From assembly GCA_964474825.1 (NCBI GenBank), contig CAYYWQ010000001.1, positions 964,048 to 1,028,047 of the forward strand: a DNA stretch of 64,000 bases. Reading direction: 5' to 3'. The position numbers were made by a program, and so were the translations under genes. This DNA comes from an uncultured Candidatus Saccharibacteria bacterium. GTDB taxonomy: Bacteria > Patescibacteriota > Doudnabacteria > UBA920. The first letter of the stretch is position 1. The number at the start of each line of letters is the position of its first letter. Of this stretch, positions 27,859 to 60,061 are shown in pieces. Under the pieces are notes generated by a model. The model ran no database searches, was not told the origin of the DNA, and saw only the letters and a list, made by a program, of their open reading frames with translations.

Positions 27859-29001
27859 TTACTCAAAAAAATTCTGAATAAGTCCGTTTTTAACAATTTG
27901 CGGCGTGTAACCGCCCTCCCTGTCGCCTGCAGAGTTAACGGTAATACTGCCCGAAGCACCCGGCCAATTTTTTATTGTTCTAGACCAAGCGGCTAATTTT
28001 TCCCCGTTATAGCCAACCTGCTGTATGCCAAATTTTAATAAATAAATGGAGTCGTATTCCGTATGCCCATAACTTTGGTAAGCTAATTCCACTCCATATT
28101 TTTGTTTGTAGTCTTCGAGCAGGTGTTTAGATTTTGGATTGGTTAAATCTAAGACAAACTGCGAGCCTAAGGATCCTTCCAAAAAATCTTTATGGTCTTG
28201 CAAAAACTTTTGATCACCAGCTTCTGTTTCGGTAATAAATAATTGCGGCTTCCAGGCAAGTTCCTCAACCTGCTTAATTATTCTTTCCCCGGCCGGGGGA
28301 GCCTGCGGGTCTATAAATAGAACATCGGGGTTCTGGTTCTTAAGCTTTATTAGCTGTGACCTAAAATCAGTTGAATCAACCGGAAACTCTTCTTTTATAA
28401 CCTCCCCTCCCAAAGCTTCAAAACGTTTTTTAAACGCGCCGTAAATCCCTAAAGGGTAATCTTTTTGCTCCACTATAAAAGCCACTTTGCGGAATCCTTT
28501 CCTGTAAGCGATTTCGGCATCAACCTGTCCCTGACTGTCGTCGCTTGCTACGTTGCGGAAAAAATACGGGCTTATGCCGGTCAACTCCGGACTGGTTGCC
28601 CCGGGCGAAAAAAATAAAACTTTATTTTGCTGCGCAATAGTCACGACTGGAATAGTCACACTGCTGCACAAACTGCCAAGCAGTATTTGCACTTTGTCTA
28701 CATTAATTAATTTTTGCGCGGCACTCGCCCCGTCCTTTCCGCTGCATTTATCGTCTTCAATTATTAATTCCAGTTTTTTGCCGTTTACCCCTCCTTGGCT
28801 GTTTATTTCTTCCACCGCCAGCTGGTAAACATTTTTTGCCGGCTCGCCGTAAATTGCCGCGTCACCGCTAAGAGGCAACAGCACACCAATTTTATAAATT
28901 GTGTCTTGGCTAGTCTGGTATGGTTTAGTTTTAGCTGATATTAGCCAAACCACCAAAACCAAGACAATAAAAATTGCCGTCACCTTCACTTGTTTATTCA
29001 T
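27859..29001 (-). CDS. ABC transporter substrate-binding protein, branched-chain amino acid (LivJ/LivK, Peripla_BP_6) family
   Basis: Signal/TM segment followed by IGVLLPLSGDAAIYGEPAKNVYQLAVEEINSQGGVNGKKLELIIEDDKC. No adjacent permease or ATPase gene. Confidence 0.85.
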   Translation of the reverse strand: MNKQVKVTAIFIVLVLVVWLISAKTKPYQTSQDTIYKIGVLLPLSGDAAIYGEPAKNVYQLAVEEINSQGGVNGKKLELIIEDDKCSGKDGASAAQKLINVDKVQILLGSLCSSVTIPVVTIAQQNKVLFFSPGATSPELTGISPYFFRNVASDDSQGQVDAEIAYRKGFRKVAFIVEQKDYPLGIYGAFKKRFEALGGEVIKEEFPVDSTDFRSQLIKLKNQNPDVLFIDPQAPPAGERIIKQVEELAWKPQLFITETEAGDQKFLQDHKDFLEGSLGSQFVLDLTNPKSKHLLEDYKQKYGVELAYQSYGHTEYDSIYLLKFGIQQVGYNGEKLAAWSRTIKNWPGASGSITVNSAGDREGGYTPQIVKNGLIQNFFE

Positions 29002-29118
29002 AGCATGTTCTTAATAATTAGTGTCATTGAATTTTACATTCAATAACATAACATTATAATAGCTTGATTTATATAGTCAATAATGTATACTAAAAGTGTC
29101 AGCCATAACAACACTTTT

Positions 29119-29856
29119 ATGATACCTATAAATTCGCTAACAAATTTAGGCCTTTCTGCTGTGGAATCTAAATTATATTTAGCGGCTCTTGAGCTAGGAC
29201 AAAGCCTGCCAAAACATTTAGCCGAAAAGGCCGCCATAAAACGACCGACACTTTATGAATTTTTACCTAAGTTATTAGAACAAGGACTGTTAAGCGAAAC
29301 AGTAATTGGCAAACGCAGATATTTAGTGGCGGAAGACCCTGAGGTGTTTTTAGATAAAAAACATTCTGACCTTGCCCAAATAGAGCTACTGGTACCTCAA
29401 CTTAGACTATTGCTGGCTACAGCATCGGTTAAGCCAAAAATAATTTTTTATGAAGGCGTCGAGGGGCTAAAAAAAATTTACCAAGACAATTTGCGGGAAA
29501 ATGAGCCCACCCTGGAATTAGTAGGCATAGACAAAATCCAGCCCGAAATAGAAACCTACATTAACCGTTATTATATTCCGAGCCGCGTAAAAAAACGCAT
29601 TGCTTTAAAAATGCTAATTAGCGGTTCAGAAAAAAATGATTCGTGGAATTACAAAACTGATCCTTATATGCTCCGCGAAACTAAGACAATTTCCAATAAA
29701 TTTTTTCCCATACCAATGGATTGCAATATTTACGGCGACACAGTGGCCTTAGCCGTCTACCGCAGCGACAGCGAACCGATTGGGCTAATAATAAGATCTA
29801 AAGAGATAGCCACAACCATGCGATCACTGTTTAATTTCATTTGGGAAAAGGCCTAA
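29119..29856 (+). CDS. TrmB-family transcriptional regulator (paralog 0)
   Basis: N-terminal winged HTH (ESKLYLAALELGQSLPKHLAEKAAIKRPTLYEFLPKLLEQGLL) plus a TrmB C-terminal domain. Homologous to the ORFs at 52844, 55298 and 58661. Sigma70-like promoter (TTGATT-16-TATACT) upstream. Confidence 0.7.
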   Translation: MIPINSLTNLGLSAVESKLYLAALELGQSLPKHLAEKAAIKRPTLYEFLPKLLEQGLLSETVIGKRRYLVAEDPEVFLDKKHSDLAQIELLVPQLRLLLATASVKPKIIFYEGVEGLKKIYQDNLRENEPTLELVGIDKIQPEIETYINRYYIPSRVKKRIALKMLISGSEKNDSWNYKTDPYMLRETKTISNKFFPIPMDCNIYGDTVALAVYRSDSEPIGLIIRSKEIATTMRSLFNFIWEKA

Positions 29857-50668: not shown

Positions 50669-50745
50669 GGGCGTGTAGCTCAGCTGGTTAGAGCATCAAG
50701 CTTATACCTTGAGGGTCCATGGTTCGAGTCCATGCACGCCCACCA
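50669..50745 (+). tRNA. tRNA-Ile(TAT) (anticodon UAU)
   Basis: Acceptor GGGCGTG/CACGCCC, D-arm GCTC-AGCTGGTTA-GAGC, perfect anticodon stem TCAAG/CTTGA, loop CTTATAC, T-arm CATGG-TTCGAGT-CCATG, and CCA. Terminator hairpin at 50746..50775. Confidence 0.75.
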
Positions 50746-52103: not shown

Positions 52104-52733
52104 CTACTTGCGGCCCCTCCTTAGATCAATACGCGCGCTGACGTTAAAGTATACCCGGCTTTCGCTTAGCCCGGTCAGGCTAAACCTATAAGCATACGCC
52201 CCGCCGTAGTCCACGCCCCGCCAACTGCCAAGACCAAGACTGAGCCTAGGCCCAAAGTTGTACTGCTTAGGGAGTGTTGAACTGGCTGGCCGCCAGACAG
52301 ACTCCTCTTCGCCGCCCAGCGAAAGCTTTTTCCACACGCGATACTCCACAATCGCGAAGTGGTAAACGCCCGGCTGGGTTACGAAGGCTGTCGGCTCCAC
52401 ATAGACCGAGAGCCGTTTGGTTAACTGCACGCGGCTGCGGACATCAAGAGCCCAAAACCCGCCCTTTTGGCTCCACTGCTTCTGGGCCATAACTTCAACC
52501 CAATTGTTTTTGTCGCCGCGGCCAACACCAAAAAAAATGTTGGCGTTATTTGGTGTTGCGGTGCGGAAGTTAGGAATTCCCCAAACTACTAAATCATAAC
52601 CCTTCCCAACCTCACCGCGAAAATGGAACGCGTCTCGGTTCTGCCAATCCTGGGCGTGTAGACGTGAACACAAAAACCAGGCCATTGCGATTAAAGCAAT
52701 AACTATCCAAACCAAACTTTTATTGCGTCTCAC
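52104..52733 (-). CDS. Signal-peptide protein with outer-membrane beta-barrel-like alternating pattern, in GC-rich (~57%) island
   Basis: Signal peptide MRRNKSLVWIVIALIAMAWFLCSRLHA. Amphipathic alternating-residue strands and a C-terminal aromatic-rich segment (GGAYAYRFSLTGLSESRVYFNVSARIDL). Composition is atypical for this genome. Confidence 0.45.
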   Translation of the reverse strand: MRRNKSLVWIVIALIAMAWFLCSRLHAQDWQNRDAFHFRGEVGKGYDLVVWGIPNFRTATPNNANIFFGVGRGDKNNWVEVMAQKQWSQKGGFWALDVRSRVQLTKRLSVYVEPTAFVTQPGVYHFAIVEYRVWKKLSLGGEEESVWRPASSTLPKQYNFGPRLSLGLGSWRGVDYGGAYAYRFSLTGLSESRVYFNVSARIDLRRGRK

Positions 52734-52843
52734 TGTTCCTCCTTGCCAGAGCCGCCTCTACTTGCCAGCGGATGGGAGTACAGCTTATAATATTTCTATT
52801 GAGTGGCCAACACCACCACAAGATAATATTAACCACCACAATT

Positions 52844-53590
52844 ATGCACCAAGAAATATTGGAAGAATTAGGACTTTCGCCTAACGAAGCAAAAATTTAC
52901 GAATCGCTTGTTGAAAAGGGAGAGTCTTCTGTTAGCGATGTTGCTACCAGTTCGCAAACCCACCGCAGGAATACTTACGACGCTATGAAGCGCCTTGTAG
53001 ACAAAGGCTTAGTTTTTGAAATTCTATCCAGCACCGGCAACCACTATAACGCGGTGGAGCCGGACAAACTTATGGAACTGGTGGCGGAAAAGGAAACTCG
53101 GCTGCGCCACATTTTACCAGACCTAAAAAAGAAATTTCATAGGCGCCTGGCACCGGAAGAAGCTTACATTTACCGCGGATTGGAAGGACAAAAAAATGTT
53201 TTGCGGGACGTGCTAAGAGTTGGTAAAGACAGCTATTTTATTGGCGCCAAAGGCGGCTGGTATGACCCGCGTTTGGAAACTACCCGCAAAGCTTTTTTTG
53301 CGGAAACCAAAAGAAAAAAAATAAAATTCATTCAGTTGTTTGACCACGAAATAAAACTGGAAAAAGATTTCCCTAAATATTTTGAAGGAAATTTAGAATA
53401 CCGGTTCCTGCCCAAACAATACTCCTCAACTTCTGCCATTCATATTTTTGGCGATTACGTGGTGACCTACACCGGAATGACAATTAAAAAATTGGCGGAC
53501 GACATTGTCTTTTTTGTAATTCGCAGTAGCAACTTAGCCGAAGGCTACCGCAAATGGTTTCGGTACATGTGGGACAAAGCGGAAAAATAA
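52844..53590 (+). CDS. TrmB-family transcriptional regulator (paralog 1)
   Basis: wHTH (ILEELGLSPNEAKIYESLVEKGESSVSDVATSSQTHRRNTYDAMKRLVDKGLV) plus a TrmB C-terminal domain. Start at MHQEIL (ATG at 52844). Confidence 0.7.
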   Translation: MHQEILEELGLSPNEAKIYESLVEKGESSVSDVATSSQTHRRNTYDAMKRLVDKGLVFEILSSTGNHYNAVEPDKLMELVAEKETRLRHILPDLKKKFHRRLAPEEAYIYRGLEGQKNVLRDVLRVGKDSYFIGAKGGWYDPRLETTRKAFFAETKRKKIKFIQLFDHEIKLEKDFPKYFEGNLEYRFLPKQYSSTSAIHIFGDYVVTYTGMTIKKLADDIVFFVIRSSNLAEGYRKWFRYMWDKAEK

Positions 53591-53620
53591 AAATTTTCAT
53601 TTTTACATCTCAAAGAAAAA

Positions 53621-53644
53621 GAGCAGGGCCGCGGGGTCCTGCTC
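53621..53644. terminator. GC-rich hairpin terminator (copy 1 of duplicated pair)
   Basis: GAGCAGGGCC-GCGG-GGTCCTGCTC. Near-identical to 56074..56098. Confidence 0.6.
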
Positions 53645-53682
53645 TTTAGAGTTGTGGGGTAAGGTCCCACGGGCCTGCCTTG

Positions 53683-55071
53683 TTATCGGTCGAAAGGCAC
53701 ACACCGGTTTATGAGTTTTGCAACCCAGGAAATGAGGCCGTGGCCGCCCTGGGGAACCAGAGGAGAAGTGGCGCAGCGGCCGGAAGGCGCGTATCTGACA
53801 ATGACAAACAGGTATGCCAGATTCACCAACCAACGCTGCCAGCGTCGCGGGTGAGTAGTTGAGTTCGCGAGCCCGCAAATGTCCAGGTCGTAGAACAGCG
53901 CGGGGTTTTGGATTAGCCCTTCCGCGACTTCAGGGTTTTCATACCAGCCATCATTTCCCGGAAGAATTCCCCGGTAAACATAGGGACGTAAAACCGTGTT
54001 TGGCCAACGGTCAACAAACCAGAAGAACTGAGCAATGGTCTGCAGCAGTCTGAGAAAAACCTTGTCGGAATGCTGACCCATAACAGTGAGAACCTCGGAA
54101 CGCAATCCGAGTTGGTGGGCGAGGTTGTAGGCAGCCTCTATGTCTTCCATCTTGTTTTGCGTTTTTCCTTCCTCATCCCATTCCTCCCTGCTTGTCCCGT
54201 CGACTCCGAACCCAGCGCACCACAAGCCGCTCCGCTGGACAAGTTCGGCAAAGTTTTCGTGCTGCTCGCTGGCAGCCAGAAATGTGCCCATGCAGGTCAG
54301 ACAGCGTGTCCGTAACTGCACACCGGTCTCTTCCTGTTCCTCGGCCATAGCTTTCATATACTGAAATATAGCCTTGGGTGTCTGAAAGAAGTCCAGGTTG
54401 GAAGCGTAGCACTCCAATTTGCAGATCCCAAAGCTCTGGGCCTTTTTCAAAAGGAACCGCAAGTCATTTCGAAAGGCAGTTAGGTCGCGGAAAGTTTCTT
54501 TTTGCCCCTTGGATGCGGAACACCATTTACATTTGTATATGCAACCCTGCGAGAGCACGAGAGAGAATTCGTGTTCCAAATATTTCCGCAGGCGTTCGTT
54601 ACCCATATGCTCCCAAACCGGTTGGTAAGGGATTTCGTAGGCAGAAGGCAACGCGCCGAATAGTTGCGCGTGGTCATTCTCGCTGGCGACCTGAAGAGCG
54701 GTAGTGCCGAACACAGTACGGAACTGCTCTTTGGAGAAATGAGATGTTACTTGGCCACCCAAGACAACTTTTGCGTGCGGATATCGACGTGAGGTTTGCT
54801 TGGCAAATTTGATCGCCCGCGGGATTCCAGGAGAACCCATGACCGAAGCGCCAATTACATCGGCACCGGAGAACAAGCTAGAGACACGCTCGTCGCCGGG
54901 CTTGTCGATGTTGAAATCGACAATATCCACCTTATGGCCAACGGCCATCAATTGCGCAGCTATAGCCACAACAGAACCGGACATGTAAACCTTTTTCCCA
55001 TAAGGGTACCCCAGATCCACCAGGACAACCTTTTGGGGTTTTACCGAAGACTGCAAAATCGTAAAGCTCAT
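53683..55071 (-). CDS. B12-binding domain / radical SAM domain protein (class B radical SAM), paralog 1
   Basis: N-terminal cobalamin-binding-like domain (VVLVDLGY...KVVLGGQVTSH) and a radical-SAM Cys triad GCIYKCKWC (CxxxCxxC). GC ~55%. SD AAGGAGG lies 7 nt upstream of the ATG. Confidence 0.8.
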   Translation of the reverse strand: MSFTILQSSVKPQKVVLVDLGYPYGKKVYMSGSVVAIAAQLMAVGHKVDIVDFNIDKPGDERVSSLFSGADVIGASVMGSPGIPRAIKFAKQTSRRYPHAKVVLGGQVTSHFSKEQFRTVFGTTALQVASENDHAQLFGALPSAYEIPYQPVWEHMGNERLRKYLEHEFSLVLSQGCIYKCKWCSASKGQKETFRDLTAFRNDLRFLLKKAQSFGICKLECYASNLDFFQTPKAIFQYMKAMAEEQEETGVQLRTRCLTCMGTFLAASEQHENFAELVQRSGLWCAGFGVDGTSREEWDEEGKTQNKMEDIEAAYNLAHQLGLRSEVLTVMGQHSDKVFLRLLQTIAQFFWFVDRWPNTVLRPYVYRGILPGNDGWYENPEVAEGLIQNPALFYDLDICGLANSTTHPRRWQRWLVNLAYLFVIVRYAPSGRCATSPLVPQGGHGLISWVAKLINRCVPFDR

Positions 55072-55148
55072 CTGAAGACCTCCTTAAGGTTTTCATAAGG
55101 CTTCTAGAATTGCCTTATCAAAACCCTTAGATTTTGCAGTCTTGGACT

Positions 55149-55182
55149 AGCTAATTTAGCATATTTTTGCTAGATTGTCAAT
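55149..55182. promoter_or_regulatory. Palindromic operator-like motifs AGCTAATTTAGC and ATTGTCAAT in divergent promoter region
   Basis: Both palindromes recur in the homologous intergenic region at 58521..58559. Confidence 0.45.
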
Positions 55183-55259
55183 CTATATGGTCAATTCGTA
55201 TTCTAAATTTCCTTTAAATAAAGCCTTAATTTGTATATACTAGATTTTGTTCAAAGGTG

Positions 55260-55288
55260 TTGACACAAATGAAAAAATAGGCTATACT
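55260..55288 (+). promoter_or_regulatory. Sigma70 consensus promoter TTGACA-17-TATACT (near-leaderless TrmB paralog 2)
   Basis: The -10 ends only 9 nt before the ATG at 55298. Confidence 0.5.
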
Positions 55289-55297
55289 TATATTGCC

Positions 55298-56068
55298 ATG
55301 ATAAATATTCCAAAAAACCTAAGAGATTCGCTTCTTTCTATGAATTTTTCTGAGAAAGAAGCAGACGTGTATCTTGCACTTTTGGAATTGGGCAAAGGAA
55401 CGGTTTCAGTTATTGCGCGTAAGGCAAATTTAAATAGAACCACTGGTTACCATATTTTGGACTCCCTAAGTGCCAAGGGTTTGGTTAGTGTGTCGGGGAA
55501 AGAACCTCTGCAAGAGTTTGTCGCTGAATCACCAGAAAAAATTACTGAACTGCTGCAAAAAAAATTTATTGAGTACGAAAATTATTTAAAGCAGGCCAAA
55601 GAAACTGTACCCCAATTAAAATCTTTTCATAATATTTCGGACAGGCCCAAGGTTAGATTTTACGAAGGCAAGCAAGGCCTAATAGATGTTTACGAAGACA
55701 CCTTAACCTCTCATGAACCACTGCGCGCTTTTGCTAATTTTGACGACATGCACAAAGCGCTGCCCGATTATTTCCCTTCCTATTATTTGCGTCGCTCAAA
55801 AAAAGGTTTAAATATTCGCGGAGTAGTACCAGTAACACCTCAGGCACTGGAACGACAAAAATTTAACAAGGAAGAAGCCAGGGAAATGACATTTGTGCCG
55901 TATGATAAATATTATTTTTCTCCCGAAATAGACATGTATGACAACAAGCTCATGATTGCTTCGTGGAAAGAAAAACTGGGAATAATAATAGAGAGCAAGG
56001 AAATAGCAGATGCCATGAAAAAAATATTTGAACTGGCATGGCTAGGAGCAAAAGCTTTAAATAAATAA
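55298..56068 (+). CDS. TrmB-family transcriptional regulator (paralog 2)
   Basis: MINIPKNLRDSLLSMNFSEKEADVYLALLELGKGTVSVIARKANLNRTTGYHILDSLSAKGLV. Highly similar to paralog 3 at 58661..59479 (for example VRFYEGKQGL..VYEDTLTSHE, MIASWKEKLGIIIESKEIADAMKKIFELAW). Confidence 0.75.
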   Translation: MINIPKNLRDSLLSMNFSEKEADVYLALLELGKGTVSVIARKANLNRTTGYHILDSLSAKGLVSVSGKEPLQEFVAESPEKITELLQKKFIEYENYLKQAKETVPQLKSFHNISDRPKVRFYEGKQGLIDVYEDTLTSHEPLRAFANFDDMHKALPDYFPSYYLRRSKKGLNIRGVVPVTPQALERQKFNKEEAREMTFVPYDKYYFSPEIDMYDNKLMIASWKEKLGIIIESKEIADAMKKIFELAWLGAKALNK

Positions 56069-56073
56069 AAACA

Positions 56074-56098
56074 GAGCAGGGCCGCGGGGGTCCTGCTC
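56074..56098. terminator. GC-rich hairpin terminator (copy 2 of duplicated pair)
   Basis: GAGCAGGGCC-GCGGG-GGTCCTGCTC. Confidence 0.6.
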
Positions 56099-56122
56099 TT
56101 AAAGTTTGGGGACAAGCCCCAA

Positions 56123-58267
56123 TTACAACAAAGTTTGTGCGAACTTGACCGCTTCGGGCCAAGTTTTAAAGTCAGCGTTAATGCCAAGCTCCGTCCGAAT
56201 AACCGTCCTAATTTGTCCGAGGCGGTCATTTAACAAATGCGGAACGTCGGGCTCGGGAGGGTATTGATCGGCCGCAATTGCGGCCATCTCCCGAAGCTCG
56301 GCCCAGGTAAAGCGTGAGCGGTTGACCCACCACGGAATAGTGGAGGTCACTTTATACGCCCAGTGGGTGCGACACGCCTGCTCGAGAATGTCACGGAGGG
56401 CGTCGACCTTGGTGATGGAAGTAACCCTAGTATTGGAAGTACGCAAGTAATCGAAATCACGATTGACCCGCATAGGCTTCTTGTCTTCCAAGACCCGGAT
56501 GTAGTCTGAGTGAGATCCGTTTATCTCCTCCGGTGACAACCGCATGAGGCGGTAGCGACCAGATTTGATAGTTAGGATAGAGTCGCCGTGTTCCGCAAGG
56601 AAACCAATCCACTTAAAACCAACGTGGAGAGGTTCGCCGGGAATACCCACCATGAGAAAGACATGGGTGTGGATTCCGGCATTCTTGAAATTGGCCAGAA
56701 TGGCCCCGTAGTTCTTGGGCTTGTTCCAACCCTTAAACTCCCGGAGCAGCGTATTTGGGTCGAGCGATTCAAGGCCGAGCTGCACTGAGCGGCAGCCGGC
56801 TGTGTAGAGGTCACGGGCAACGGCCGGATCGGTCAACTTACGATTGGCCGGATTCTCCATTGTCACATAGCACTGCCATGTTGCCTCGTAACCAATACGG
56901 CGAAGTTCGGCGCCGAGTTCCAGTTGGAAATCGTAACGGAAGAGCTCATCGACAATGTCGAACTTGCTCTCACCGGTCGCGGCCATGTCCTCCGCAATTT
57001 TCCGCGGCGACATAAAGCGAGGCGCTCCCAAATGCGTGTCGCTCTGCCCCGAAATGGCGCAGAAACCACAGCGCTTGCGACAATTGGAAGCGGTGTAGAG
57101 CGTAAGAACCGGATCGGGCGACCAAGGCTTTGCCTCGCCGTCGAAATGCGGCGTGGGCAAATCCTTAAACTCGGTTGGCGTAGCAGTTGGGGGATTAACT
57201 GTAACCACACCGCTATTCAGCCAAGCAGTTCCCGATGCCGCGCTAGGGTCAAGTGTTGAAACCAATTCCGTGAGTGGCTGATAGCCCTCCCGATAAACAA
57301 TGGCGTCTACGAAGCCGAAAAATTCGACAAACTCTTGCTCGCTAAACGCCTTAGTCAGTCTGGGCCAAATATTTCCGCCGAGAACCACCAGAGTATTAGG
57401 CAACGCTTCCTTTATTAGCGAAGCGAGGACCAGGCCCGGAATGAGTTGCCGTTCGTCGCTGGTAGAAATCCCATATACGTCCGGCTGAAAGTCGCGTGCG
57501 ACCGGCAGCTCAACGTTCATGAAATATTCGTACCAGAGATTCTTTTCGCGAGACATAAGGGCCTTAAGCGTACCCTCAATGCTGCCGTCTTGCGTCGCGC
57601 CTTGGTAGACGACATTATTGCGTTCATAAAAGAACCTGTCCTCTGTTTTTATGTCGCGCGAGATTTGTTCGAACCTGATGCGAGCGGCATAGTAACCCGC
57701 AAGAGTTGGCTTTGCGTTAGGGCCGCGGATGTTGTTGAGCAACTTCTCAACATCCTCCCCGCCGTGCGCCTTGAGCAAATACTCAAGGCCAATAATATGT
57801 CCGTAGCGCTGGCGTACATTGTGCCCCCGCTGGCGAAGCACTGCCGTAAGCTGCGTGGTCCCGCCCGGATGATGCCAAACGGAATACGCGGGAGCGTTAT
57901 ACAGAATGACTTTCCGCGGCTTCATGAGCGCCACCACGGAGAGCAGAGGTTCGGGCTTGATGGCCGTAATCTTGCGGAACGACATAGTAAGCTGTCTCCT
58001 TGGTGTAAGTGGTGTGCGTACATGAGTGGTGTCCAGGATCTGTCTAAAAACCGACACGGGTTCATAGTAAGTCCTGGATTCCCCGACCGGAACCTCGGCC
58101 GTAGCACGGCAGACGCCGTCCTTGTTGGGTGAGAGGCATACCCACGCGGGCACGTTGCCATTTGAGTTCCATCGGCTGTAATACTTCCAGTCAACGGTTA
58201 CCGCGCTCTTTACCTCAATGTTGAAGAGGTTTAGAACACAAAAGATCGCGAGAATTCTGATTTTCAT
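56123..58267 (-). CDS. B12-binding domain / radical SAM domain protein, paralog 2, with ~94-aa N-terminal signal-peptide-like extension and long C-terminal extension
   Basis: Radical-SAM triad NCRKRCGFC and a B12-binding-like region (TLVVLGGNIW). The N-terminus MSFRKITAIKPEP (ATG at 57985, SD AAGGAG 9-10 nt upstream) is homologous to the paralog 1 start MSFTILQSSVKPQ. The in-frame upstream segment starts MKIRILAIFCVLNLFNIEV (ATG at 58267), which overlaps the stop of the upstream small ORF as ATGA. GC ~53%. Confidence 0.75.
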   Translation of the reverse strand: MKIRILAIFCVLNLFNIEVKSAVTVDWKYYSRWNSNGNVPAWVCLSPNKDGVCRATAEVPVGESRTYYEPVSVFRQILDTTHVRTPLTPRRQLTMSFRKITAIKPEPLLSVVALMKPRKVILYNAPAYSVWHHPGGTTQLTAVLRQRGHNVRQRYGHIIGLEYLLKAHGGEDVEKLLNNIRGPNAKPTLAGYYAARIRFEQISRDIKTEDRFFYERNNVVYQGATQDGSIEGTLKALMSREKNLWYEYFMNVELPVARDFQPDVYGISTSDERQLIPGLVLASLIKEALPNTLVVLGGNIWPRLTKAFSEQEFVEFFGFVDAIVYREGYQPLTELVSTLDPSAASGTAWLNSGVVTVNPPTATPTEFKDLPTPHFDGEAKPWSPDPVLTLYTASNCRKRCGFCAISGQSDTHLGAPRFMSPRKIAEDMAATGESKFDIVDELFRYDFQLELGAELRRIGYEATWQCYVTMENPANRKLTDPAVARDLYTAGCRSVQLGLESLDPNTLLREFKGWNKPKNYGAILANFKNAGIHTHVFLMVGIPGEPLHVGFKWIGFLAEHGDSILTIKSGRYRLMRLSPEEINGSHSDYIRVLEDKKPMRVNRDFDYLRTSNTRVTSITKVDALRDILEQACRTHWAYKVTSTIPWWVNRSRFTWAELREMAAIAADQYPPEPDVPHLLNDRLGQIRTVIRTELGINADFKTWPEAVKFAQTLL

Positions 58268-58476
58268 TTTTTTACCTTTCCTAATCCTGACATGCTCACA
58301 GCAACAACACTTGCCAAGCCAAACGTAATACAAACTACTGCCACAGCAGCTCCCACTTGCTGCACAACGACCTCCGCTGTATGGCCGGTGAGCCACAACA
58401 CTGTTACACCTATTGAGAACAATACCCAACTAACCGACCGCAGATATGAGGCTAGCTTTTGTTCTAACTCCTTCAT
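58264..58476 (-). CDS. Small two-TM membrane protein, translationally coupled to radical SAM paralog 2
   Basis: MKELEQKLASYLRSVSWVLFSIGVTVLWLTGH...VVCITFGLASVVAVSMSGLGKVKK. Strong SD AGGAGG 5 nt upstream of the ATG at 58476. Its stop codon TGA overlaps the downstream ATG. Confidence 0.5.
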   Translation of the reverse strand: MKELEQKLASYLRSVSWVLFSIGVTVLWLTGHTAEVVVQQVGAAVAVVCITFGLASVVAVSMSGLGKVKK

Positions 58477-58520
58477 GTGGTCCTCCTTTAGGACTAAGCA
58501 ATCTAACATAAATTGTTAAT

Positions 58521-58559
58521 ATTGTCAATAGTTATTTACTATACTTAAGCTAATTTAGC
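58521..58559. promoter_or_regulatory. Palindromic operator-like motifs ATTGTCAAT and AGCTAATTTAGC (second copy)
   Basis: Same two palindromes as 55149..55182, in the opposite order relative to the flanking genes. Confidence 0.45.
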
Positions 58560-58607
58560 TTATAATTAAAGCTTAAATAGACATTAAAATATTATTGTGA
58601 ATAAATA

Positions 58608-58636
58608 TTGACACAATCTGTTATACAAGCTATAAT
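58608..58636 (+). promoter_or_regulatory. Sigma70 consensus promoter TTGACA-17-TATAAT for TrmB paralog 3
   Basis: Perfect consensus hexamers with a 17-nt spacer. ATG at 58661. Confidence 0.5.
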
Positions 58637-58660
58637 AAATAGGCCATTAATTACAAACAA

Positions 58661-59479
58661 ATGCCTCAGAATAATTTTGAATTACAAAAAGCCTTGCTTT
58701 CGTTAAATTTTACGGAAAAAGAAGCCAGTGTTTATTTGGCTTTGCTGGAACTGGGTCAGGGTAGCGTGTCGGAAATTGCCCGGAAGGCGAACATTAACAG
58801 AACTTACGGCTACAATATTCTTTCCACGCTGGCGGGGAAAGGCTTGGTAAATATTTCCGGAAAAGAACCTAAACAGGAATACGCGGCTGAGTCTCCGGAT
58901 AAAATTAAAGATTTGCTAAAAGCGGAAATTATTAAAAATCAGGAATTTTTAAAACAGGCCGACGGAGTCATTCCGCAGTTAAAATCTATTCATAGTATTC
59001 GGGGACGCCCACAGGTCCGCTTTTACGAAGGCAAGGAAGGTCTGCAACAAGTTTATGAAGATACATTAACTTCACATGGAACTATATTGGCTTACGCCAG
59101 CGTGGAAGACGTACACCAAACCCTGCCCGGCTATTTTCCAGATTATTATTTTCGCCGCGCGGACAAAGGCATCCCAATACGCGCAATTTTTCCCGATTCC
59201 CCCGAAGCCGAAGAACTTATTAAATCAAACAAAGCTCAAAAAAGAGAAACAGCATTAGTACCGCCGGACAAGTTTTCTTTTTCTCCGGAAATAAATATTT
59301 ACGACAATAAAGTCATGATTGCCTCTTGGCGGGAGAAGTTAGGGGTCGTTATAGAAAGCGGCGAGATTGCGGACGCAATGAAAAAAATATTTGAACTGGC
59401 GTGGGCTCAAGCGAAGAGTTTAGAAAAAAATATTAAAGCAAAAAATACCCCTAGACAACTAGGAAAAAATCTGCTATAA
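58661..59479 (+). CDS. TrmB-family transcriptional regulator (paralog 3)
   Basis: LSLNFTEKEASVYLALLELGQGSVSEIARKANINRTYGYNILSTLAGKGLV plus a TrmB C-terminal domain. Closest to paralog 2. Confidence 0.75.
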   Translation: MPQNNFELQKALLSLNFTEKEASVYLALLELGQGSVSEIARKANINRTYGYNILSTLAGKGLVNISGKEPKQEYAAESPDKIKDLLKAEIIKNQEFLKQADGVIPQLKSIHSIRGRPQVRFYEGKEGLQQVYEDTLTSHGTILAYASVEDVHQTLPGYFPDYYFRRADKGIPIRAIFPDSPEAEELIKSNKAQKRETALVPPDKFSFSPEINIYDNKVMIASWREKLGVVIESGEIADAMKKIFELAWAQAKSLEKNIKAKNTPRQLGKNLL

Positions 59480-59782: not shown

Positions 59783-60061
59783 ATGGACCAAGACGACATA
59801 AAAGATTTATATAATGAAAAGTACCGCAAGCTTTTGGGCATTAAATACGAAGAATGGCAGGACACTGGTCCCCAAAACGAGGGGGAAGCTTACGCAAGAC
59901 TTCAAGAAATAGACGAAGAGTTAAAAAATTCCTACGACGAGTGGTATGAATCCGAAGGCGACACTAAAGAAGAGCTGGGCGAACACCGCGACAAATTAAA
60001 AGCAGAATACGACTTTTTGGAAGAAGCTTTTGGACTCGAGGCTCCGGACAAAAACTGGTGA
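59783..60061 (+). CDS. Hypothetical acidic protein (92 aa from MDQDD)
   Basis: Internal ATG start with acidic coiled-coil-like composition. The ORF-track 5' extension (TTG start) looks non-coding. Confidence 0.35.
   Translation: MDQDDIKDLYNEKYRKLLGIKYEEWQDTGPQNEGEAYARLQEIDEELKNSYDEWYESEGDTKEELGEHRDKLKAEYDFLEEAFGLEAPDKNW

Follow-up and report, generated by a model that had tools for sequence, protein, structure and literature searches.

The TrmB and TrmBL2 proteins of the Thermococcales (PDB entries 5bpd, 3qph and 2f5t) share an N-terminal winged helix-turn-helix domain (wHTH, PF01978) that a long coiled-coil helix joins to a PLD-like domain. TrmB proper has an additional sugar-binding C-terminal subdomain, and the binding of archaeal TrmBL2 is reported to be largely non-specific. 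The class I cobalamin-dependent radical S-adenosylmethionine (SAM) enzymes TsrM, OxsB, TokK and CysS, together with AprD4, likewise follow one plan, with an N-terminal Rossmann domain of the B12 type preceding a radical SAM barrel that bears a CX3CX2C motif. Bacteria of the Candidate Phyla Radiation (CPR) account for a large share of bacterial diversity, and next to nothing is known of how they regulate their genes or of their accessory chemistry. Here we describe a 64,000-nt stretch of a CPR chromosome (the window, whose numbering is used for all positions), in which three TrmB-family genes, trmB1 to trmB3, alternate with genes that include those of two radical SAM enzymes, rSAM1 and rSAM2. 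The closest named relatives of both enzymes are from Doudnabacteria. Our central finding is that a TrmBL2-like regulator gene and a radical SAM gene form a conserved divergent pair. No paper describing a pairing of this kind was found in the literature on TrmB with radical SAM or with CPR and, as far as we found, it is an undescribed CPR module.

To define the conserved neighbourhood, rSAM1-family loci were taken from species-representative genomes and metagenomes, and their open reading frames (ORFs) were scanned with profiles of the window proteins. Of the 42 loci whose flanks are long enough, 37 have by our own tally a TrmB gene immediately upstream of, and divergent from, the rSAM1-family gene. 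All of the divergent partners are of the TrmB2/3 type, being 38–89% identical to TrmB2/3 (most 50–89%, three about 41%) and 20–34% identical to TrmB1 or to a fourth TrmB-like protein of the window, TrmB4. When all flanking ORFs were clustered, no other conserved neighbour of the rSAM1-family genes emerged. The orthologs of TrmB2 in loci L007 and L045, with 86–89% identity, are paired with orthologs of rSAM1. The recurrence of a divergent TrmB2/3-type gene in 37 of 42 loci indicates that the functional pairs in the window are rSAM1 with TrmB2, and rSAM2, together with a small upstream ORF, with TrmB3. The initial annotation of the window had tied TrmB-type regulators to radical SAM genes, and this association is kept well beyond the window genome. 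The repeating module that it had proposed, a TrmB gene followed by a terminator and a convergent radical SAM gene, gives way to a divergent pair sharing its promoter region as the conserved unit.

The array thus divides into three units, each with a plus-strand regulator gene and a minus-strand cargo. In unit 1, trmB1 (52844–53590) diverges from an ORF for a 209-aa secreted, beta-rich protein (52104–52733). The cargo of trmB2 (55298–56068) in unit 2 is rSAM1 (53683–55071), which encodes 462 residues. In unit 3, trmB3 (58661–59479) faces a 70-aa hydrophobic ORF (58264–58476) and rSAM2 (56123–58267), which encodes 714 residues, with a catalytic body of about 620 aa (56123–57985, minus strand) of the class-B radical SAM type, whose nearest known kin are cobalamin-dependent methyltransferases, and an N-terminal extension delimited by alignment with homologs (57986–58267, minus strand). 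The slot occupied by the array is flanked by a DHFR-like gene and rsmI/yebC, and its content differs between genomes: two rSAM1-type units and one other in L001, rSAM2 and a unit with two unknown proteins in L061, rSAM2 and a split rSAM1 in L064, and a single rSAM1 unit in L069. The alternation of TrmB and cargo genes is seen again in syntenic Doudnabacteria genomes, which places the layout beyond chance. The cargo beside TrmB2/3-type regulators varies, being rSAM1 or rSAM2 in some loci and a mini radical SAM protein or proteins of unknown function in others; genes of the rSAM1 and rSAM2 families occur separately, and both actinomycetes and other CPR genomes have rSAM2 relatives with no TrmB gene beside them. 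We consider it probable that three independent regulator-cargo units, with the regulation proposed below, are arrayed here at a variable site in a Doudnabacteria-like CPR chromosome.

All three regulators contain the PF01978 wHTH (TrmB1, 55.0 bits; TrmB2, 51.6 bits; TrmB3, 55.5 bits; cut-off, 25.6 bits), and the three ORFs are where the initial annotation had reported them; the fourth TrmB-like gene, that of TrmB4, lies at 29083–29856. TrmB2 and TrmB3 are 62% identical to each other. TrmB1 belongs to a different subfamily, with about 30% identity to TrmB2/3 over about 125 residues, and the identity of TrmB4 is also about 30%. The TrmB2/3 family is very large, with 1993 or more proteins at E<1e-10, and its conservation is unusual: many members are about 64% identical across CPR lineages, and the mean column identity in a 35-sequence alignment is 69%. 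In the AlphaFold model of TrmB3 (pLDDT 89), the wHTH is followed by a 30-residue coiled-coil helix and then by an alpha/beta domain resembling the PLD-like N-subdomain of the TrmB effector-binding domain, and the model as a whole is TrmBL2-like. The length of about 260–270 aa is also that of TrmBL2. In contrast to the Thermococcales proteins, the host is a bacterium and the sequence similarity is confined to the wHTH, the only part that aligns to 3qph. The sugar-binding C-terminal subdomain of TrmB proper was not found, as the proteins end at 248–272 aa, and the genes beside them encode radical SAM proteins, not sugar ABC transporters. The NCBIfam equivalogs for TrmB, TrmBL1 and TrmBL2 gave 18–37 bits against cut-offs of 500–650. 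Judging from the model, TrmB2 and TrmB3 probably work like a TrmBL2-type protein, and the label of a sugar sensor is unwarranted.

The divergent intergenic regions have in common a 22-bp palindrome, TTGTGTCAAT-N6-TTCCACAA, which in almost every locus covers the -35 element of the trmB promoter. A weight matrix made from 16 examples found exactly two sites in the window, both on the minus strand. The first, TTGTGTCAACACCTTTGAACAA (55247–55268, 24.8 bits), overlaps the -35 of the strong trmB2 promoter-like site identified by promoter scan at 55260–55288, and the second, TTGTGTCAATATTTATTCACAA (58595–58616, 29.2 bits), lies over the -35 of the likewise strong trmB3 promoter-like site (58608–58636; 12 of 12 positions match). 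In about 0.6 Mb of related loci, non-seed loci included, sites occurred only in TrmB/cargo intergenic regions and in constant orientation. By our own count, both palindromes in the window lie about 111 bp upstream of the presumed transcription start of the cargo, the distance being equal in units 2 and 3. This layout resembles that of a classic autoregulated local repressor, and the palindrome is a candidate operator, specific and conserved where TrmBL2 binding is reported to be largely non-specific. The shared palindromes that the initial annotation had noted in the divergent regions were of another kind: GCTAATTTAGC does occur twice in the window and nowhere else in it, at 55150 and 58549, but it is not conserved in the related intergenic regions and was dropped as a conserved operator in favour of TTGTGTCAAT-N6-TTCCACAA.

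On the cargo side, promoter-like sites precede both radical SAM transcripts on the minus strand. That of rSAM1 (55153–55181) reads TTGACA-17-TAAATT with a TG, its -10 overlapping the GCTAATTTAGC copy at 55150–55160, and the arrangement TTGAC(G/C)-N9-TTGACAAT is seen again in related loci. That of the operon of the small ORF and rSAM2 (58500–58528) reads TTGACA-17-TAGATT, also with a TG. The trmB1 promoter-like site (52762–52791, plus strand; TTGCCA-18-TATAAT, 11 of 12 positions) is followed past its -10 by a conserved element, TTGAGTGGCCAAC.CCACCACA ... ACCACCACA (52798–52840, plus strand). This element differs from the 22-bp palindrome, is conserved upstream of the TrmB1-type genes in L045, L001 and L008, and is a candidate operator for TrmB1. 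At the other ends of the genes, a GC-rich hairpin, GAGCAGGGCCGCGGGG(G)TCCTGCTC, lies between the convergent trmB1 and rSAM1 (53621–53644) and again between the convergent trmB2 and rSAM2 (56074–56098). The two copies, which the initial annotation had correctly seen, are the only ones in the window, with a chance expectation of 0.02, and L009 and L045 keep the stem of the first but have another loop. The hairpin is likely a bidirectional terminator. Right after the rSAM1 stop codon (about 53645–53682, minus strand) there is also a conserved block, AACAAGGCAGGyCyGTGGGAsCCTyAyCC, common to L007, L045, L008 and L009, which may be a 3'-untranslated-region element.

The rSAM1 mRNA begins with a structured leader (55035–55148, minus strand). 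Known leaders and riboswitch expression platforms that sequester the translation initiation region have a conserved long-range helix around the Shine-Dalgarno (SD) sequence and the AUG, and the rSAM1 leader has this feature. Its predicted fold (-44.1 kcal/mol, z=-5.9 against shuffles) contains a 16-bp helix, P1, that links the 5' end of the leader to codons 4–8 (55130–55143 with 55047–55060) and encloses a 15-bp hairpin, P2 (55086–55127), the SD sequence (55079–55085) and the AUG (55069–55071). All 13 distinct homologous leaders keep P2 and the long-range enclosing helix, with arms shifted or changed in some (L036 and L037). In the 13-sequence alignment, 84.6% of the cells are paired as compared to at most 51% in slid controls, and ten pairs have changed on both sides. 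A covariance model of the leader matches only the leader position in each locus, and only before genes of the rSAM1 subclade. Unlike known riboswitch platforms, the leader belongs to no Rfam family and has the 3' arm of its helix in coding sequence (codons T-I-L-Q). A search of Rfam 15 (4227 families) gave no match in 55035–55148 even at E up to 10, which rules out a known riboswitch. The P2 loop is an 8-nt palindrome that reads TACTAGTA or TTCTAGAA depending on the locus and is palindromic throughout; an RNA kissing loop is one possible role for it, and a site for a protein on the DNA another.

Both cargo enzymes have the CX3CX2C motif in a partial TIM barrel that defines the radical SAM superfamily. 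In rSAM1 it is formed by C177, C181 and C184, invariant in 32 homologs, and in rSAM2 it reads CRKRCGFC. The Pfam scores of the two are complementary: rSAM1, with an N-terminal Rossmann domain of the B12-binding type, passes the cut-off for B12-binding (PF02310; 35.7 bits, cut-off 32.1) and falls below that for Radical_SAM (20.9 bits), whereas rSAM2 passes for Radical_SAM (43.8 bits) and falls below for B12-binding (19.7 bits), although some of its homologs carry a precomputed B12-binding domain. Of the two B12 radical SAM genes announced in the initial annotation, both hold the cysteine motif and rSAM1 alone a B12-binding domain above the Pfam cut-off. Nor are the two the paralogs they had been taken for, since BLASTP aligned them at best over 56 aa with 30% identity (E=0.004), a remote similarity that rules out close paralogy and leaves them in different families. 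Modelling suggests for both a fold like that of the class I radical SAM enzymes that depend on B12, with the same order of domains, at 10–16% sequence identity to TsrM, OxsB, TokK, CysS and AprD4. A review places TsrM, OxsB and TokK in class I, and describes AprD4 as looking the same and binding no cobalamin (PMC12931638). Because AprD4 was matched equally well, the likeness to TsrM, OxsB and TokK does not fix the use of cobalamin. The likeness of rSAM2 to PhpK, TokK and HpnR consists of weak sequence matches, and a search of PDB sequences with the enzymes gave nothing below E=0.007, the value of the rSAM2 match to TokK.

Neither enzyme falls into a characterised family, as had been anticipated. 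The thresholds of the named class B subfamilies in NCBIfam (HpnR, HpnJ, PhpK, BzaD and TIGR03975) were reached by neither protein, the best scores being 27–55 bits against cut-offs of 282–650. The highest were those of rSAM2 with PhpK (E=4e-15, 55.2 bits, cut-off 600) and with the C-methyltransferase family TIGR03975 (E=7e-14, 51.2 bits, cut-off 281.85), which acts on ribosomally synthesised and post-translationally modified peptides (RiPPs); HpnR gave 30.5 and 26.9 bits (cut-off 650) and BzaD 18.8 bits (cut-off 450). With such scores the hopanoid methylases HpnR and HpnJ were discarded as candidates. A housekeeping placement of the MiaB/RimO type, which the initial annotation had named as grounds for abandoning its reading, was sought with profiles and not obtained: neither enzyme matched these families in Pfam or NCBIfam, the N-terminal domain of rSAM1 is devoid of the conserved cysteine triad, and its C-terminus is helical rather than a TRAM beta-barrel. 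A role in anti-phage defence was likewise discarded, as PADLOC had no match for rSAM1, rSAM2, the small ORF or the secreted protein and matched the TrmB regulators only through the generic wHTH of CasR/Csa3. Carriage by phages or viruses was rejected on the grounds that no relative of rSAM1 or of the regulators was found in IMG/VR.

The two families differ in distribution. The rSAM1 family is found almost only in CPR metagenome proteins (61 matches), and a full HMMER scan resolved it into 166 clusters (50% identity) at E<1e-30. Its C-terminal helical region, unlike that of the class I enzymes, has its own invariant motifs, THPRRW, TSPLLPQG and NRxMPFDR, and three more near-invariant cysteines. 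The rSAM2 family is broader, with homologs in CPR, one Woesearchaeota metagenome-assembled genome and actinomycetes. The actinomycete genes (from Saccharothrix and Streptomyces; L004 10001–13531 and L075 2968–7764) adjoin genes for a cytochrome P450 and for a carboxylate-amine ligase of the GCS2 family, with which they may form a small conserved biosynthetic trio; these neighbours give a weak hint of small-molecule chemistry for the relatives of rSAM2. Our best guess for the chemistry is that a small metabolite, or else a molecule associated with the envelope, is methylated or rearranged by a radical mechanism, and that this takes place at the membrane for the forms with an N-terminal extension. 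Such signal-like extensions are carried by many members here, in contrast to the named class I enzymes. CPR organisms are not expected to make cobalamin, and a nearly CPR-exclusive family with the predicted fold of cobalamin-dependent enzymes is of interest for that reason. Should the targets of the enzymes be the cell surface or some scavenged metabolite, this could bear on the interaction between episymbiont and host. The envelope modification suggested by the initial annotation stays a guess, the 'OMP-like' gene on which it drew being the secreted-protein cargo of the TrmB1 unit.

The rSAM2 N-terminal extension consists of a signal-peptide-like helix, a hypervariable stretch of about 60 aa with two cysteines, and a conserved junction, RKITAIKPEP. 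By its sequence it resembles a signal anchor with the hypervariable part behind it, and the topology that this implies is implausible for an iron-sulfur enzyme. The extension is 59% identical to that of P0020, a protein of the rSAM1 family in L019. At the nucleotide level, the window and L019 are homologous through trmB3 and the intergenic region (76%) and through the extension (71%), and the homology ends where the catalytic body begins; the body behind the shared extension is of the rSAM2 type in the window and of the rSAM1 type in L019. Given that the homology stops at the body, the enzyme body appears to have been swapped while the regulator, promoter and N-terminal module in front of it stayed the same, and the comparison is direct sequence evidence for this. 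The homology also skips the small ORF, implying that this segment is an insertion in the window lineage. The 70-aa ORF has an AAGGAGG SD sequence and its stop overlaps the rSAM2 start in ATGA, in agreement with the translational coupling noted initially. The C-terminal half of its product is rich in Val, Ala and Gly. It is lineage-specific, no homolog having been found in related loci and no match in Pfam, NCBIfam or PADLOC. A TTG start that would make rSAM2 768 aa long and a start that would give the small ORF 81 aa were dropped for those at 58267 and 58476, on account of the SD sequence, the ATGA overlap, the N-termini of homologs and the position of the promoter.

Taken together, the array of independent units would be regulated as follows. 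Each plus-strand TrmB-family gene shares an intergenic region with its divergent cargo, and the regulators of units 2 and 3 are TrmBL2-like proteins of a very conserved CPR family. A regulator dimer would bind the 22-bp palindrome over the -35 of its own promoter and so repress its own gene, and would also control the cargo promoter about 110 bp away; a ligand in the PLD-like C-terminal domain would relieve the repression. As a second layer in rSAM1, the helix between the 5' end of the leader and codons 4–8 would enclose the ribosome-binding site, so that translation would need the helix to open. Over time units would be gained, lost and recombined, leaving a body of the rSAM1 or rSAM2 type behind one regulator, promoter and N-terminal module in different genomes. 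An archaeal-type, TrmBL2-like regulator family with a predicted operator would offer among the first testable regulons in the phylum, and the leader is a candidate for a new cis-regulatory RNA.

Several points weigh against this interpretation. The steps of binding, expression and enzymology are drawn from sequences and models, and adjacency alone connects the regulator with the cargo promoter. Since the left arm of the palindrome contains a sigma-70 -35 hexamer, part of its conservation may be plain promoter conservation, and the weight matrix was seeded from some of the loci on which it was later scored. The covariation of the leader comes from 13 related sequences, 3 of 500 shuffles attained its score, and these sequences also served to derive the structure; with so few of them, the structured leader is suggestive and not proven. 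Finally, the TrmB2/3-type regulator family is also found without a radical SAM neighbour; its other cargo includes a 213-aa mini radical SAM-like protein and proteins of unknown function, and some members have no divergent partner. The 213-aa protein (L065, 5831–6472, minus strand), which has a CPVTCSFC motif and a weak Radical_SAM match, is the divergent cargo of another TrmB-like gene and itself adjoins an rSAM1/TrmB unit.

The same data bear on other readings of the locus. The clustering of the genes, repeated in related genomes (L045), could mean that the two radical SAM enzymes belong to a single pathway with the small membrane protein and the 'OMP-like' protein, with an envelope component or a metabolite as its target and three dedicated regulators to co-ordinate it, which was in essence the proposal of the initial annotation. 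The signal-like helix of rSAM2, the signal peptide of the secreted protein and the occurrence of one N-terminal module on members of both enzyme families fit such a multi-component system. However, the units are separate and variably combined in L001, L061 and L069, relatives of rSAM2 in other CPR and actinomycetes stand beside neither a TrmB gene nor an rSAM1 or 'OMP-like' gene, the 70-aa ORF is confined to the window lineage, and TrmB is the sole conserved neighbour found. We accordingly judge one system improbable. Less probable still, indeed hardly to be expected, is a RiPP-type locus in which rSAM2 C-methylates the 70-aa product or its own hypervariable extension as in proteusin-type pathways. 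The sub-threshold match to TIGR03975, the coupling of the small ORF to rSAM2 and its Val/Ala/Gly-rich half speak for it; yet the TIGR03975 score of 51 bits is far under the cut-off of 282, a conserved precursor gene with a recognisable leader was not found at the rSAM2 locus, where the small ORF has no leader-family match and is missing upstream of the rSAM2 orthologs in L061 and L064 and from L019, no protease or transporter was found nearby among the window ORFs with Pfam, and the GCS2-type ligase and P450 beside the actinomycete homologs suggest a small-molecule pathway.

Base composition raises a different alternative. The three cargo genes have the highest GC content at third codon positions (GC3) of the 57 window genes (0.59–0.62 against a mean of 0.43, z=2.3–2.7), the regulators being host-like, and the contrast recurs in many related loci, though not in all. 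Together with the differences in unit content between relatives and the description of archaeal TrmBL2 as a chromatin protein in PDB entry 5bpd, this would suit recent horizontal imports of high-GC cargo, with TrmBL2-like proteins that silence foreign DNA locally instead of responding to a ligand. Against this, the GC3 contrast persists between orthologs of about 50% identity and is absent in other subclades, the predicted site of the regulator is a specific conserved palindrome rather than one of non-specific binding, and no copies were found on viral contigs in IMG/VR. Moreover, the retained N-terminal extension is as GC-rich as the swapped body, so that a simple recent import of the body fails to explain the GC3. 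Silenced imports therefore seem to us a poor bet. A bolder form of the exchange seen between the window and L019 would make the slot a cassette-exchange hotspot, in which a fixed socket (TrmBL2-like regulator, operator, cargo promoter and N-terminal membrane module) takes up radical SAM bodies swapped by recombination or horizontal transfer and thereby diversifies surface or metabolite modification in episymbiotic CPR, with the rSAM1 leader as a new riboswitch or protein-responsive element sensing a cofactor or substrate of the enzyme. We regard this as rather unlikely, and hold to the array of three independent, locally regulated units.

The secreted protein of unit 1 is paired with TrmB1 by position, and the TrmB1 orthologs in L001, L045 and L008 are likewise divergent from small secreted proteins. 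It has an N-terminal hydrophobic segment (signal peptide), a beta-rich sequence and a GC3 of 0.59 (z=2.3). No match was found for it in Pfam, NCBIfam or PADLOC, and a 42%-identical homolog adjoins a TrmB gene in L008. The TrmB1-type cargo as a whole consists of small beta-rich signal-peptide proteins (52104–52733 in the window, L045 5320–5808, L001 12330–12809 and L008 12003–12617). The C-termini of two of them read GYTW, as in barrel proteins of the outer membrane. The CPR phylum is thought to be without an outer membrane, which makes such barrel-like ends odd there.

TrmB4 lies outside the array. Its gene is divergent from a Peripla_BP_6 solute-binding gene (27859–29856 region), and its 3' end overlaps the start of infB. 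It is a separate regulator-cargo pair of the more classical TrmB kind.

Elsewhere in the window, the ORF listed as 141 aa at 59783–60061 (plus strand) probably encodes a 92-aa acidic protein (MDQDDIKDLY...), without a family match, which is kept at 66–75% identity beside rsmI in L001 and L069. A tRNA-Val(UAC) gene (37977–38053) is followed after about 165 nt by a group I intron (38218–38468, plus strand; RF00028, 76 bits), and directly after the intron comes a 251-aa ORF (38519–39274) with weak HTH matches and low GC3. Finally, a tRNA-Ile gene (50669–50745, plus strand) adjoins an F420-ligase-like gene and has the anticodon UAU, which is uncommon in bacteria.

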